Positions 7,570 through 26,190 of a DNA stretch of 32,958 nucleotides are shown piece after piece. The position numbers were made by a program, and so were the translations under genes. Position 1 is the stretch's first letter. Each line of letters starts with the position of its first letter. The notes under the pieces are model-generated. The model was not told the DNA's origin and made no database searches. It saw only the letters and a program-made list of their open reading frames with translations. Where the stretch lies: positions 1-32,958 of the IMG/VR virus record IMGVR_UViG_646862326_000003; one strand, 5' to 3'. Source of the stretch: a virus (taxonomy: Duplodnaviria > Heunggongvirae > Uroviricota > Caudoviricetes).

Positions 7570-7792
7570 AGAACGCCGCCAGTCGTGAAACTTGTTTTCA
7601 GGGCTGGCGGGGTTGAACAACGAGCGAAGCGAGGCGTTAGTTGACAGACATATTTTTACTGCGTTGGTGCCGGTTTTTGACGGTTGAAAGGAGTTAGGTT
7701 GGAGAGCTAACAACTTACAAATATTCAAAAGTAAGCATCCTGTTGCTAACATGAGGTCGATTTTTTATGTGGATGATGTAAAAAGGATAGCT

Positions 7793-8524
7793 ATGGATAC
7801 TATAATCGCTTTTCTATCACTCGCTTTTTTCGTTGCTTTCTTCATCGGGTTAATCAAGCCATCACTGGTGCGAATGCCAAACCGCAAACGTGCAAGTGCG
7901 GTTTATCTCGGAGGAGGTTTTGTATTGAGCATAATTGGTTCAATACTCTATCCAACAGAAAAAAGCCAGCCAGTTGCTAAAACTGAAACATCAACCGTTG
8001 CAGAACACAAAGTCCAAAAAACATTCGAATATGGTGAAAAAACACTCAAGGAATATCGGAACGAGTCAAAGAAAACACGACACGATATTGTGAATAGTTA
8101 CATTGATTTTAAGGAAGTTCCAGCCACCGCGTCAGATGCGTTTTATGCCTGCATGAGTGAGTATACATTTACCAAAGATGATGAGTTGAAACTCGGTGAT
8201 GTTCTTGGGTGGTGCTTTAATGATTATGAAAATGACCCGAATTCACTAAACAATAAAATCAATCTTGATACATTTCAGAGTAATTTTAGTGGTTGGGATG
8301 GTTCTTATCGTCCATTGGAAAAACTAATTAAAGATAATATGAACGATGATTCATCTTATAAACATGTGTCAACGGTATATCATCTGGTTTTGAATAAAGA
8401 CCCGCATGCCATTGTGAAAACCACGTTTCGCGGAACTAATGCTTATGGAGGAGTGGTGAAACAGACGATTGCTGCGCGTGTTGATATAAAAACTGGTAAG
8501 GTGATATCAATCATAGATAATTGA
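7793..8524 (+). CDS. AT-rich cargo gene 1: membrane protein with two N-terminal transmembrane helices and a C-terminal soluble domain (243 aa)
   Basis: Start placed at the ATG preceded by AAGGA (the track start 7751 has no Shine-Dalgarno). Hydrophobic helices IIAFLSLAFFVAFFIGLI and AVYLGGGFVLSIIGSILY. Visibly AT-rich relative to the structural genes. Sits in the P2 old/tin accessory position. Followed by a strong intrinsic terminator. Confidence 0.65.
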   Translation: MDTIIAFLSLAFFVAFFIGLIKPSLVRMPNRKRASAVYLGGGFVLSIIGSILYPTEKSQPVAKTETSTVAEHKVQKTFEYGEKTLKEYRNESKKTRHDIVNSYIDFKEVPATASDAFYACMSEYTFTKDDELKLGDVLGWCFNDYENDPNSLNNKINLDTFQSNFSGWDGSYRPLEKLIKDNMNDDSSYKHVSTVYHLVLNKDPHAIVKTTFRGTNAYGGVVKQTIAARVDIKTGKVISIIDN

Positions 8525-8533
8525 TATCTTACA

Positions 8534-8575
8534 ATGCCGACGCTGAATATTTAATTGGGTGTCGGCATTTTTTTT
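8534..8575 (+). terminator. Rho-independent terminator after cargo gene 1
   Basis: Perfect 8-bp stem ATGCCGAC (8534-8541) / GTCGGCAT (8561-8568) followed by TTTTTTT (8569-8575). Confidence 0.6.
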
Positions 8576-8635
8576 GACTATTAGAGCGGCAGAGCCGAGA
8601 TTTGTTACGTATGAGATTAGCACTGCGAGAATGTT

Positions 8636-9418
8636 ATGAAAGTTATAAACCAACTTAAGAAGTTTGATAAGAAAAGAACGCCAGATGATGGCCGTATTAG
8701 TTTGTTATATGAAAACGCGATTAAGTATGATATGTACTCTGTATATATTAAAGATAAAAATGATACAGAATACCTCTTTGACTGTTTGGTTGATGGGAAG
8801 ATAAAGGCTTTTAAATGGGATGATGAGGAACGTAGATTTCATATAAGTTCATACTTGGATATTTCTGAGCTTACGCCTGATTCTTTTTTTGGTATTTATT
8901 ACTACCGTGCGCATGAGTTGCGATTTAACTCTTTAAATGATTTAACCTTTTTAAGGGAGTTGTTTTTTAGAGTGAAGTCTAATTATGAAAATATAAAGTT
9001 TAGTCGTGAAAAATATATTTATCGACAGCAAAAAAAAGAAATAACTGATGTGATGCTTGTTCTCTCAACGATTATAAGAATGTATCGTGAACGGGATGCT
9101 GAAACTGTGTTTAGTGAGTTTTCAATAATGACCGAAGTCGCTGGTAGTTTATGGGTATACCATGACGATAAAAACAGGATGCGTAAAGAGCTTCGTTTAT
9201 GCCTGAATTCTCTTGTTCAGAATGGAGATCTTGTTGAAACAAGTAGTGGATTTAGGCTAACAGGAAAGGCACTGAACACAATATCTACATTCAATAAAGA
9301 TGAGTTGCGGTACAGAGAGAATTTGAGCACTCAGAAGAAAATGTTTTGGGCTACTTTTTTCGCAGCAGTCGGCGGCGTAGGAAGTATGATTGCAGCTATA
9401 ATAGGGCTTCTAAAATGA
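8636..9418 (+). CDS. AT-rich cargo gene 2: soluble domain with C-terminal transmembrane tail anchor (260 aa)
   Basis: C-terminal FWATFFAAVGGVGSMIAAIIGLL is a single predicted transmembrane helix. A 60-nt sample at 8641-8700 is 35% GC versus 58% for a sample at 13321-13380 in the capsid region. No recognisable catalytic motif. Confidence 0.65.
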   Translation: MKVINQLKKFDKKRTPDDGRISLLYENAIKYDMYSVYIKDKNDTEYLFDCLVDGKIKAFKWDDEERRFHISSYLDISELTPDSFFGIYYYRAHELRFNSLNDLTFLRELFFRVKSNYENIKFSREKYIYRQQKKEITDVMLVLSTIIRMYRERDAETVFSEFSIMTEVAGSLWVYHDDKNRMRKELRLCLNSLVQNGDLVETSSGFRLTGKALNTISTFNKDELRYRENLSTQKKMFWATFFAAVGGVGSMIAAIIGLLK

Positions 9419-9578
9419 GCCAACAAAATCGTATGATGAAGTATTGAGTGAAAAGCATTCTTTATATGCATTATTTTGCATGCAACATATGCTATACATT
9501 TTAGCTATGAATTGTCAGACGTGGCAGTACTTCTGTATGGTAATGCAACTGCATTAAAACCGCCCCATGAAGCGGGCG

Positions 9579-9597
9579 GGCGAGGCGGGGAAAGCAC
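9579..9597. other. cos: cos site: 19-nt cohesive-end sequence GGCGAGGCGGGGAAAGCAC
   Basis: Exact match to the P2 cohesive-end 19-mer as recalled, in the expected place between the accessory genes and Q, preceded by the palindrome CCGCCCCATGAAGCGGGCGG and followed by GC-rich terminase-binding sequence. Confidence 0.8.
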
Positions 9598-9739
9598 TGC
9601 GCGCTGGCGGTGGTGCTGATTTTATTTTTTCAGCGTCTCAGCGCGTCGTGATGGCATTTAGTCGGCCTGCTGGGGCGTTGGTGTGTCTGCGGGGTGTTTT
9701 GTGCGGTGGTGAGCGTGTGAGGGCGTGATGGCGGGTTGT

Positions 9740-9766: not shown

Positions 9767-10801
9767 TCAGCCGTTGTCAGTGTCCAGTGAGTAGTTTTTA
9801 AAGCGGATGACCTCCTGACCGAGCCAGCCGTTTATCTCGCGGATCCTGTCCTGTAGCGGGATAAGCTCATTGCGGACAAAGACCTTTGCCACTTTCTCAA
9901 TATCACCCAGCGACCCGACGTTCTCCGGCTTGCCGCCCATCAACTGAAAGGGGATGCGGTGCGCGTCCAGCAGGTCAGCGGCGCTGGCTTTTTTGATATT
10001 AAAAAAATCGTCCTTCGTCGCCACTTCACTGAGCGGGATAATTTTAATGCCGTCGGCTTTCCCCTGCGGGGCATAGAGAAACAGGTTTTTAAAGTTGTTG
10101 CGGCCTTTCGACTTCACCATGTTTTCGCGAAGCATTTCGATATCGTTGCGGTCCTGCACGGCATCGGTGACGTACATGATGTATCCGGCATGTGCGCCGT
10201 TTTCGTAATACTTGCGGCGGAACAGCGTGGCTGACTCATTCAGCCAGGCAGAGTTAAGGGCGCTGAGATATTCCGGCAGGCCGTACAGCTCCTGATTAAT
10301 ATCGGGCTCCAGCAGGTGAAACACGGAACCGGGCGCGAAGGCTGTCGGCTCGTTGAAGGACGGCACCCACCAGTAAACATCCTCCTCCACGCCACGGCGG
10401 GTATATTTTGCCGGTGAGGTTTCCAGTCTGATGACCTTACCGGTGGTGCTGTAACGCTTTTCCAGAAACGCATTACCGAAAACCAGAAAATCCAGCACAA
10501 AGCGGCTGAAATCCTGCTGGGAAAGCCACGGGTGCGGGATAAACGTTGAAGCCAGAATATTACGTTTGACGTAAATCGGTGAGCTGTGATGCACGGCAGC
10601 ACGCAGACTTTTTGCCAGACCGGTAAAGCTGACCGGTGGCTCATACCATCTGCCGTTACTGATGCATTCGACGTAATCCAGAATGTCACGGCGGTCGAGT
10701 ACCGGCACCGGTTCGCCAAAGGTGAATGCCTCCATTTTCGGGGCGCTGGCGGTCATTTTTTTTGCCGCAGGTTGCAGTGTTTTCCCTTTTTTCTTGCTCA
10801 T
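9767..10801 (-). CDS. Q: Portal protein gpQ (344 aa)
   Basis: Size and position match P2 Q; ATGA overlap with the P stop on the minus strand; transcribed divergently from the O operon. Confidence 0.9.
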   Translation of the reverse strand: MSKKKGKTLQPAAKKMTASAPKMEAFTFGEPVPVLDRRDILDYVECISNGRWYEPPVSFTGLAKSLRAAVHHSSPIYVKRNILASTFIPHPWLSQQDFSRFVLDFLVFGNAFLEKRYSTTGKVIRLETSPAKYTRRGVEEDVYWWVPSFNEPTAFAPGSVFHLLEPDINQELYGLPEYLSALNSAWLNESATLFRRKYYENGAHAGYIMYVTDAVQDRNDIEMLRENMVKSKGRNNFKNLFLYAPQGKADGIKIIPLSEVATKDDFFNIKKASAADLLDAHRIPFQLMGGKPENVGSLGDIEKVAKVFVRNELIPLQDRIREINGWLGQEVIRFKNYSLDTDNG

Positions 10802-25133: not shown

Positions 25134-25976
25134 ATGAAAAAAGAATTGTTTGGACGTTGCCCGTTTGATCTTGACGAAGATGTAAAAAAAATAGCCGCGA
25201 TAAATAAATATATCCATGCAAAATTTGAGGAGCATAAAAATAAAATAGACAACCTAAAGGGTGTGGAACAAAAATTGATGGTCTTACAGTACTTTAATGT
25301 ACTGAATGAACTTAGTAATCAGGCTATCTCTTCTTTGAATATAGGAGCCTTTTCAGCATCGGAAGTATTAGCTAGGGTTATAATAGAACAGGCTGCCAAT
25401 CAATTTTATATAGCAATAGATGATGGCGAAAATGCACAAGCATTACTCAAGGCTAGTAAGAAATTAGTTCATAGTAATGGAAAACGGTGGCTGGAGTGTT
25501 TAAAATCCAAAGGAATGACTAATCCAGCAGCAAATGAAAGGATTCGCATGGGAAAAGAACTAACTGATCTATTTAATAGATTGTGGCCAAATACACCTGA
25601 ATATCCAGGAACCAGAAAACTTTTTGAATTAATTGGCTGGGAAACACACTATCATGCCCATTACGTTCCCCTTTGTGATTCAATACATACATTCTCTGAT
25701 GATATGGTAAATATAGTATCTCTATATAATGCAATCCAAAGTGATGAAACTACTGCTATCGAATTCATTCTTGCAGTTAAACAAGAAAATAAACGGCTGG
25801 CAATTTATAATTTTGTAATTGCTACGGCCCTTCGGTGTGAGGCCTTAGTAAATGTATTTAACTCTTTAGGTTATCAGGATATTATAACAGAAATGACACC
25901 AACAATAGATACAGTCAACCAGACTATAATTCGATATGATGATTTTGATCATTCCAGAATTGATGATTGTCAATAA
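25134..25976 (+). CDS. AT-rich cargo gene at the Z/fun position between G and FI: soluble protein of unknown function (280 aa)
   Basis: Coordinates as given in the ORF track; by my base count the ATG falls about 10 nt upstream, so the exact start needs checking against the sequence. A 60-nt sample at 25201-25260 is 25% GC. No transmembrane segment or recognisable catalytic motif. Sits between G and FI where P2 carries Z/fun. Confidence 0.7.
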   Translation: MKKELFGRCPFDLDEDVKKIAAINKYIHAKFEEHKNKIDNLKGVEQKLMVLQYFNVLNELSNQAISSLNIGAFSASEVLARVIIEQAANQFYIAIDDGENAQALLKASKKLVHSNGKRWLECLKSKGMTNPAANERIRMGKELTDLFNRLWPNTPEYPGTRKLFELIGWETHYHAHYVPLCDSIHTFSDDMVNIVSLYNAIQSDETTAIEFILAVKQENKRLAIYNFVIATALRCEALVNVFNSLGYQDIITEMTPTIDTVNQTIIRYDDFDHSRIDDCQ

Positions 25977-26082
25977 TTAATTGACAGAATACGTACATGC
26001 GCAACAACTAGTGATAGTTGACTTATTTTCGCTCTTGAGAGACAACCATACTCAAATCTCCCACATTGCAGGAGATTTGAAT

Positions 26083-26190
26083 ATGAAAACATCACCGTGG
26101 AATAAAGACCGTACCATCGGTCAAAAAAGGCCACTTCAGATATCTCATATCTGGGGGATCCGGATTAGACTTGAGTTGGAAGGTAAATAA
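26083..26190 (+). CDS. Small basic ORF (35 aa) with hairpin-sequestered Shine-Dalgarno; may be a gene remnant
   Basis: ATG 26083 with GGAGA 7 nt upstream. The Shine-Dalgarno is the 3' arm of a perfect 10-bp inverted repeat (26052-26061 / 26071-26080). The track's 69-aa version starts at a TTG. Confidence 0.3.
   Translation: MKTSPWNKDRTIGQKRPLQISHIWGIRIRLELEGK

Follow-up and report, generated by a model that had tools for sequence, protein, structure and literature searches.

The question raised by this locus is what two AT-rich genes are doing between the replication genes and the cos site of a P2-like prophage, and whether they act together as one system. The locus occupies positions 7570-9578 of IMG/VR record IMGVR_UViG_646862326_000003, of which we analysed the whole stretch of 32,958 nucleotides (nt), hereafter the window, and its two rightward open reading frames (ORFs) are here called gene 1 and gene 2. 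Our preferred reading, to which we give a probability of roughly 0.55, is that the island is mosaic in nature: two single-gene cassettes, each autonomous, share the cos-proximal tin/old hotspot, with gene 1 proposed to exclude superinfecting phages from the periplasmic side of the inner membrane and gene 2 proposed as a stand-alone exclusion or abortive-infection factor. This reading builds on what our analysis shows, namely the gene structures, the orf97 orthology of gene 1, the position in the hotspot, the classes of fold, the signals of topology and the fact that the two genes are separable. The two genes are:

7793..8524, plus strand: gene 1, encoding an orf97-family protein of 243 amino acids (aa) (WP_000379684, phrog_3403), assigned by sequence homology
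8636..9418, plus strand: gene 2, encoding a predicted tail-anchored winged-helix protein of 260 aa (WP_000864673, phrog_7611), assigned by structure model and sequence

Comparison of gene neighbourhoods indicates that these are two separately mobile single-gene cassettes and no obligate pair. We tabulated the neighbours of gene 2 in 42 loci, comprising 35 IMG/VR contigs and seven genome or metagenome contigs, in 38 of which the upstream side is visible. The feature directly upstream is orf97 in 22 of these 38 loci, a tum/DinI homolog in six, gpA in five and a complete type VI retron in another five, and in loci of the P0146 type gene 2 is the sole cargo gene. Seen from the other side, phage 186 lacks gene 2, and so do all 18 orf97 loci taken as species representatives. 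In complete Escherichia coli genomes orf97 was found 84 times and gene 2 16 times (the latter by a distant search), and the exact pair in only six. The adjacency of orf97 and gene 2 is found in Escherichia, Klebsiella, Enterobacter and Cronobacter at 55-79% identity, and it occurs in two different junction configurations. In 15 gene 2 loci a tum/DinI homolog stands immediately before orf97, an arrangement also found in phage 186.

The sequences at the edges of the two genes bear on the same point, and three elements define them:

7572..7642, plus strand: conserved stem-loop element of about 70 nt at the left edge of the cargo slot, recognised by its fold and its recurrence
7643..7792, plus strand: leader upstream of gene 1, with its first ~100 nt specific to the E. 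coli P2-type lineage and its last ~50 nt common with 186
8534..8572, plus strand: terminator-like hairpin immediately 3' of gene 1, with eight T in a row after it

The stem-loop, with the core GCCGCCAG...CTGGCGG, folds with -35.2 kcal/mol (z = -4.5 against shuffled sequences) and is found again in about 40 P2/186-like loci with 80-100% identity, in each case at a cargo boundary. In 186 and 186-like prophages it stands after orf97 or tum and just before gene 2, where gene 2 is present, and in the lineage of the window it stands before orf97. Such an element may be terminator-like or may be a preferred crossover point in cassette exchange. The 150-nt leader is confined to phages P22H4 and P24A7b and to the window-like contigs of our set (L037-L043), and the blastn alignment of the window with 186 begins at 7743. 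The 111-nt spacer between the two genes (8525-8635) is found in the window lineage only. It holds the terminator-like hairpin, which reads ATGCCGACGCTG...GGGTGTCGGCAT and then TTTTTTTT with a fold energy of -21.4 kcal/mol; our consensus scan missed this hairpin, probably because the sequence between its perfect arms exceeds the 8-nt loop limit of the scan. The differing junctions and the terminator-like hairpin between the genes agree with the neighbour counts in showing the two genes to be separable.

The association of gene 2 with retrons leads to the same view. A complete type VI retron (PADLOC HTH_VI + RT_VI) lies directly upstream of a gene 2 homolog in ten complete E. coli genomes, and the retron-linked homologs (L029 1854-4248, L030, L053, L057, L061 and L068) sit in the P2 hotspot and share 56-57% aa identity with the window protein. 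However, the type VI retron is present in 99 complete E. coli genomes, 89 of which have no gene 2. Gene 2 is therefore no component of the retron, and we rejected it as a retron effector on the same count of 10 in 99. The window itself contains no retron reverse transcriptase. That gene 2 recurs beside orf97 or beside a type VI retron might be a sign that these genes protect in layers or in synergy.

Both genes had been catalogued before. In the accessible part of Table S5B of Rousset et al. 2022, gene 1 is listed as the single-gene system 12 with 210 occurrences and the remark '2 TM', and gene 2 as the single-gene system 68 with 62 occurrences and the remark '1 TM'; both systems are missing from the table of tested systems, as far as that source is accessible. 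The accessions of the two proteins were not mentioned in the literature that we searched, and recent hotspot preprints are silent on orf97 and on both proteins. A sequence-only reading of this locus had found no feature that it recognised in either gene, had called the pair a candidate defence or abortive-infection module, possibly undescribed, and had suggested membrane disruption or superinfection exclusion. Its account of hotspot, AT-rich cargo and membrane products holds, and exclusion is reasonable for gene 1. The label of undescribed falls, because gene 1 is the 186 orf97 ortholog and both proteins are listed as Rousset systems 12 and 68, and the two-gene module falls with the neighbour counts, the intervening hairpin and the varying junctions given above. 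Of the checks that it proposed, the comparison of the hotspot across related prophages was carried out and found the cargo genes separable, and the search of both proteins against defence models (PADLOC-DB 2.0.0, dated 2023) gave no significant component match.

Two phages of this group show what else can follow orf97. In P22H4 (L002 4054-4752) and P24A7b (L003 4168-4866), orf97 is followed by 232-aa proteins with N-terminal transmembrane (TM) helices, and gene 2 is absent. The two proteins are distantly homologous to one another (29% identity, E 8e-11) and have no Pfam or PADLOC match, and by sequence they appear to be another membrane cargo family of the same slot.

Gene 1 is, as judged from sequence, a full-length ortholog of coliphage 186 orf97. 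Its product shares 76.5% aa identity with 186 Orf97 (AAC34191) over residues 1-243 of 243 (E 1e-117, tblastn against phage records) and matches phrog_3403 across the entire profile (E 2.8e-147), and no significant match was found in Pfam, NCBIfam or PADLOC. The start at 7793 is backed by RefSeq, by homologs and by an AAGGA Shine-Dalgarno sequence 5-6 nt upstream, in favour of which a longer ORF from 7751 was set aside. The record of phage 186 (U32222) carries for orf97 the note 'expression from plasmid blocks 186 infection', and describes the gene as the last before cos and the second in the LexA-repressed p95-tum operon, behind a partial terminator. Both orf97 proteins are 243 aa long and are encoded in equal orientation in P2/186-type phages, with about 50 nt of upstream sequence in common. 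The settings differ, however: the 186 gene follows p95-tum under LexA control, whereas the gene in the window has no tum, no p95 and no LexA site; 186 orf97 lies to the left of the 70-nt boundary element, whereas gene 1 lies to its right; and 186 orf97 is the last gene before cos, whereas gene 1 is followed by a second cargo gene.

The orf97 family comprised 163 clusters in our first protein search, with hosts in Escherichia, Klebsiella, Enterobacter, Citrobacter, Salmonella, Erwinia, Serratia, Yersinia, Photorhabdus, Xenorhabdus, Morganella and Vibrio, the Vibrio member being VHML ORF47. Members are almost always found within P2-like prophages, either in the gpA-Q slot, as in the window and in Kluyvera, Citrobacter, Enterobacter and Serratia, or adjoining ogr/D at the prophage end, as in Photorhabdus, Xenorhabdus and Morganella. 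Among 5,426 complete E. coli genomes, 84 carry orf97, as against about 556 matched by other parts of the query region, and these megablast counts vary with the identity threshold chosen.

The AlphaFold model of gene 1 (mean predicted local distance difference test score, pLDDT, 85.5) shows two hydrophobic N-terminal helices at residues 2-21 and 31-52, a disordered linker at 57-73, and a compact domain in which helices of residues 85-181 are packed on a four-stranded antiparallel sheet at 185-241. Across 52 homologs the loop between TM1 and TM2 has a mean net charge of +3.7 and a minimum of +2, while the N-tail and the segment after TM2 have a mean charge of about -0.7. Cys120 and Cys141 are invariant in the family alignment. 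Homologs from Xenorhabdus have a CxxC...CxxC zinc ribbon and a single TM helix instead of the hairpin, an arrangement that requires an N-in/C-out topology. Five small periplasmic proteins are among the best structural matches: the chaperones HdeA and HdeB take ranks 1-2, and Rap1a and Tai4, which are immunity proteins of type VI secretion systems, fall within ranks 17-26 together with YmgD. Because four independent signals, namely loop charge, invariant cysteines, Xenorhabdus variants and structural matches, agree in placing the domain in the periplasm, model and sequence together point to gene 1 as an inner-membrane hairpin presenting a putative disulfide-bearing domain to the periplasm.

For gene 1 the best and most economical reading is superinfection exclusion, acting from the periplasmic side of the inner membrane, because this accounts for both the predicted topology and the recorded phenotype of the 186 ortholog. 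The hairpin would insert in the inner membrane so that its basic TM1-TM2 loop faces the cytoplasm and the two termini lie outside, displaying a disulfide-stabilised domain of about 160 residues in the periplasm, and this domain would most likely block genome entry of incoming P2/186-type phages, the blocked step and its mechanism being what we infer. Small inner-membrane or periplasmic accessory proteins that stop the entry of an incoming phage genome are well known, such as HK97 gp15, T4 Imm, T4 Spackle and P22 SieA. Gene 1 may be likened to these proteins in its predicted topology and in the recorded phenotype of its ortholog; homology to them is undetectable.

Two observations concern relatives of the gene 1 domains. 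Among the Xenorhabdus orf97-domain proteins (L023, L025, L026 and L027), some lack the WDG motif and the second cysteine context and are encoded outside intact prophages, so these copies may be decaying or repurposed. The two-TM hairpin of orf97, with the conserved loop motif GLIKPSxVxMxxRK, is also found fused to unrelated C-terminal domains, for example in a Patescibacteria metagenome-assembled genome (L028 6959-7729) and in PHROGs 28655 and 23546, and by sequence it looks like a portable membrane-anchor module.

The structure model of gene 2 (mean pLDDT 87.0) predicts a different design. A six-stranded beta domain at residues 32-97 is followed by a long helix at 105-131 with a conserved basic motif around N119/R124/K126/R130, a winged helix-turn-helix domain at 139-208 and a stalk helix that runs into a C-terminal hydrophobic TM helix at about 236-258, with two residues beyond. 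Gene 2 is thus predicted to be a cytoplasmic beta domain and winged helix held by a C-terminal tail anchor. The anchor is found family-wide, since the most hydrophobic window falls in the last 45 residues in 93% of 95 diverse members, and along the TM helix small or polar residues form a conserved stripe (T240, A244, A247, Q/S250, A251), a sequence feature that is typical of TM helices which self-associate and that suggests helix-helix association. A match of this TM helix to a designed TM coiled-coil peptide (E 0.9) was not significant.

An exhaustive profile search gave at least 570 clusters at 50% identity for the gene 2 family, 168 of them below E 1e-10, and nearly all members are 250-300 aa long and match end to end in a single full-length architecture. 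All 95 diverse members fall in phrog_7611, and none matches Pfam or PADLOC (PADLOC at E <= 0.001). In the Pfam, NCBIfam and PADLOC scans of both island proteins, weak matches to Perilipin_2, DUF6179 and DruD (E 0.02-0.07) were dismissed as noise. Sequence-profile searches of the PDB with alignments A1, A2 and A3 returned nothing, a fold search of BFVD gave no match at E <= 0.001, and a tblastn search of 50,697 phage records with gene 2 and one distant relative was likewise empty. Single distant family proteins used as queries found no match among viral contigs, and a profile query to a word-indexed protein search gained one short contig and no more. Distant relatives occupy accessory regions of other mobile elements, where they neighbour HicAB on a non-P2 phage-like contig, HEPN and Shedu-type SduA_C genes, and ParA/HigB/ParE on a plasmid-like contig.

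From its architecture, its tail anchor and its mobile-element neighbourhoods, gene 2 is most likely a stand-alone exclusion or abortive-infection factor; we hold this with low confidence, and everything on its function is inferred. As a separate transcription unit it would give a protein at the inner face of the inner membrane, whose cytoplasmic domains might sense a phage component and whose TM helices might then associate and damage the membrane. TM modules of abortive-infection systems, in which a soluble ligand-binding domain is linked with at least one TM helix, include CBASS Cap15, the Pycsar TM effectors and the 2TM protein of retron-Ec48. Gene 2 may resemble them in combining a soluble domain with a TM helix whose small/polar stripe would suit self-association, but it has no homology to them, and it differs in its winged helix, in its one tail anchor at the C-terminus and in the lack of a signal-making partner gene. 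According to Rousset et al. (PMC9122126), the TM proteins of known systems are regarded as suicide effectors. With kleisins (Scc1, ScpA, JetB) and with MarR/PadR proteins gene 2 has only a fold-level likeness at 8-14% identity; it lacks the kleisin N-terminal domain, a nearby SMC partner and the MarR dimerisation helices, and adds an N-terminal beta domain and a membrane anchor. It is a tentative possibility, which we place well short of even odds, that the family represents a new and widespread type of single-protein system against phages or other mobile genetic elements. The beta domain and winged helix would then sense invading nucleic acid or protein at the membrane, and the tail-anchor helices, with their stripe and mid-membrane Gln/Ser, would self-associate and either depolarise the cell or block DNA entry.

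Several other explanations have to be weighed against two autonomous cassettes. The genes could work together as the two components of a single module for defence or abortive infection, for example with orf97 as periplasmic sensor and gene 2 as cytoplasmic or membrane effector. They are adjacent and co-oriented in the window, orf97 stands upstream of gene 2 in 22 of 38 loci across four genera, and the two junction configurations of the orf97-gene 2 pair could mean selection for co-occurrence. Chance co-occurrence is, however, expected where two cassettes use one small slot; orf97 is missing from 16 of the 38 gene 2 loci, and gene 2 from all 18 orf97 loci and from 186. Moreover, orf97 alone gives a phenotype according to the 186 record, the terminator-like hairpin stands between the genes, and P22H4 and P24A7b carry unrelated 232-aa proteins after orf97, so that we regard such a module as quite improbable. 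A further explanation concerns gene 1 alone, which might serve phage induction or lysis, for example by SOS-induced timing of lysis or by an envelope change, the block of 186 being a side-effect of over-expression. The place of 186 orf97 in the tum operon, where it comes second under LexA repression and a partial terminator precedes it, its position directly after tum/DinI in 15 gene 2 loci as well, and a classification of tum and orf97 together as an antirepressor system (PMC5322425) all favour this view. Yet orf97 is accessory rather than core, as its presence in 84 of the 5,426 E. coli genomes shows, in Photorhabdus, Xenorhabdus and Morganella it takes a different moron position, by ogr/D, the window lineage has it uncoupled from tum, and we know of no reason why a periplasm-facing protein should act as an antirepressor. 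We therefore consider a role in induction or lysis distinctly unlikely.

For gene 2 a function outside defence may be thought of, as a membrane-tethered DNA-binding regulator or DNA anchor, an anti-defence protein, or an accessory or effector of the type VI retron. The winged helix is typical of transcription factors and of kleisin-SMC contacts, a homolog directly follows HTH_VI and RT_VI in ten E. coli genomes and in five sampled loci, and the type VI retron of PADLOC consists of a reverse transcriptase and a small helix-turn-helix protein, with the separate effector model unmatched. Against this, only 10 of the 99 retron-bearing genomes have gene 2 and most gene 2 loci have no retron, operator-like repeats and partner genes around gene 2 are not conserved, and gene 2 is the sole cargo in P0146-type loci; on balance such a function is unlikely. 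Finally, the island could be lysogenic-conversion cargo unrelated to phages, where gene 1 might for instance be a stress chaperone of the periplasm, or might protect against peptidoglycan-targeting toxins much as an immunity protein does. The HdeA/Tai4/Rap1a-like fold of gene 1 speaks for this explanation, which we consider very improbable.

The reading of two autonomous cassettes with exclusion or defence roles has to bear a number of points that weigh against it. That orf97 and gene 2 so often stand side by side, in 22 of 38 loci and with two junction types, leaves room for functional synergy. The 186-blocking phenotype of orf97 is a database annotation consisting of a one-line GenBank note, and a block caused by over-expression from a plasmid could be a toxicity artefact of a membrane protein. 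In the window there is no tum/DinI homolog, so gene 1 is uncoupled from tum; no LexA box lies upstream of gene 1, the total of matches in the search being at chance level and the nearest match with one mismatch (7312) lying inside the DUF3850 ORF; and a consensus scan of 7570-7792 predicted no promoter. The absent SOS-operon context is a trait of the 186 setting and not of the orf97 protein family. Among PADLOC models the best match of gene 2 is DruD at E 0.024 and gene 1 has none, while the fold matches of gene 2 stop at a generic winged helix as in kleisin-SMC contacts and transcription factors. Guilt by association is weak for gene 2, because activity was seen in only three of the eight additional P2-hotspot systems cloned by Rousset et al. 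2022 (PMC9122126). The prophage may also be defective, because an IS1 element interrupts its early operon.

The position of the island is clear from its surroundings. The whole window is a complete P2-like prophage, from integrase through ogr, and is 100% identical to a prophage in E. coli IHE3034 and MS7163. The island of about 1.9 kb is cargo in the gpA-Q (tin/old) locus, a diversity and defence hotspot defined by Rousset et al. 2022 (PMC9122126), and it is flanked by the following features:

4626-6911: gpA, the replication gene left of the island
6911-7363: DUF3850/ASCH gene between gpA and the island
7363-7569: small ORF of 68 aa, the last gene before the island
9538..9598, plus strand: conserved cos-proximal right edge of the cargo slot, including the P2 cos core at 9580-9598
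9767-10801, minus strand: portal gene Q, right of cos

The P2 cos core GGCGAGGCGGGGAAAGCAC is read directly in the sequence at 9580-9598, and resemblance to other P2/186-like phages restarts at about 9538. The content of guanine plus cytosine (GC) of the island (7643-9537) is 0.365, the minimum of all 1,895-nt windows in the 32,958-nt sequence, whose median is 0.541; the values are 0.381 for gene 1 and 0.346 for gene 2, and GC at third codon positions is 0.32 in both genes versus 0.54 in gpA and 0.66 in Q. Tblastn with P2 Old (586 aa) and P2 Tin (253 aa) found no match anywhere in the window, blastp of Tin against the island proteins gave E values of 4 or above, and Pfam and PADLOC gave no ATPase or TOPRIM match in either protein. 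Remnants of Tin or Old were rejected as island content for lack of sequence similarity to either. The island resembles P2 Tin/Old in its locus between gpA and cos, in being strongly AT-rich (P2 tin-old GC 0.341, about equal to 0.365 here) and as non-essential lysogenic-conversion cargo. The P2 proteins, however, are soluble and transcribed leftwards from a promoter near cos, whereas the island genes run rightward and encode predicted membrane proteins. In both island genes pN (nonsynonymous) is far below pS (synonymous diversity), as expected of real genes under purifying selection, and the ratio of nonsynonymous to synonymous substitution (dN/dS) against diverged homologs is 0.05-0.10 for gene 1 and 0.10-0.14 for gene 2, with synonymous sites near saturation.

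On these matters the sequence-only reading was borne out. It had placed the two ORFs at 7793-8524 and 8636-9418, now 243 and 260 aa, at a site between the replication genes and cos, which is bounded as listed above. It had taken the island for AT-rich from a 60-nt sample (8641-8700), whose GC is exactly 35%, and had reported no Old-like nuclease, in agreement with the empty tblastn searches. Its hotspot assignment is supported by PMC9122126, and its view that both products are membrane-anchored is supported by the two N-terminal hydrophobic helices predicted for gene 1 and the single C-terminal one predicted for gene 2.

The gpA-Q hotspot of P2 is a proven source of anti-phage genes, and many of its cargo genes are unannotated. 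The kind of cargo, the orf97 phenotype note and the cataloguing of both genes were known beforehand, and a specialist will not be surprised by them. What our analysis adds is that system 12 of Rousset et al., a frequent cargo gene, is now tied to an early observation on coliphage 186 orf97 that had been all but forgotten, and that orf97 is given a concrete and testable topology and mechanism as a proposed periplasm-facing exclusion protein. It also gives a caution that neighbouring genes in such hotspots need not be operons or systems. The main remaining interest lies with gene 2, whose family, by sequence comparison, appears to match no described family beyond its PHROG. This gene is an autonomous, widespread candidate borne on mobile elements and without domain annotation, and it would make a cheap target for a phage-panel screen.

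Other parts of the prophage show further accessory content. The product of the DUF3850/ASCH gene, with a DUF7415 domain, and the 68-aa ORF (together 6911-7569) are variable accessory genes too; Rousset et al. 2022 (PMC9122126) counted them within the hotspot arrangements. Within the early operon, an IS1A element (2889-3586, minus strand) separates the DUF2732 gene from the DUF5405/TraR/gpA genes, and this insertion may be polar on the expression of the replication genes. A second cargo site at 25134-26187, after the tail-fibre assembly gene, corresponds to the Z/fun hotspot position and holds a gene for a DUF5677-domain protein (25134-25976) and an integrase fragment (26035-26187); sequence windows beginning near 24.7-24.8 kb also show a GC content below 0.42.

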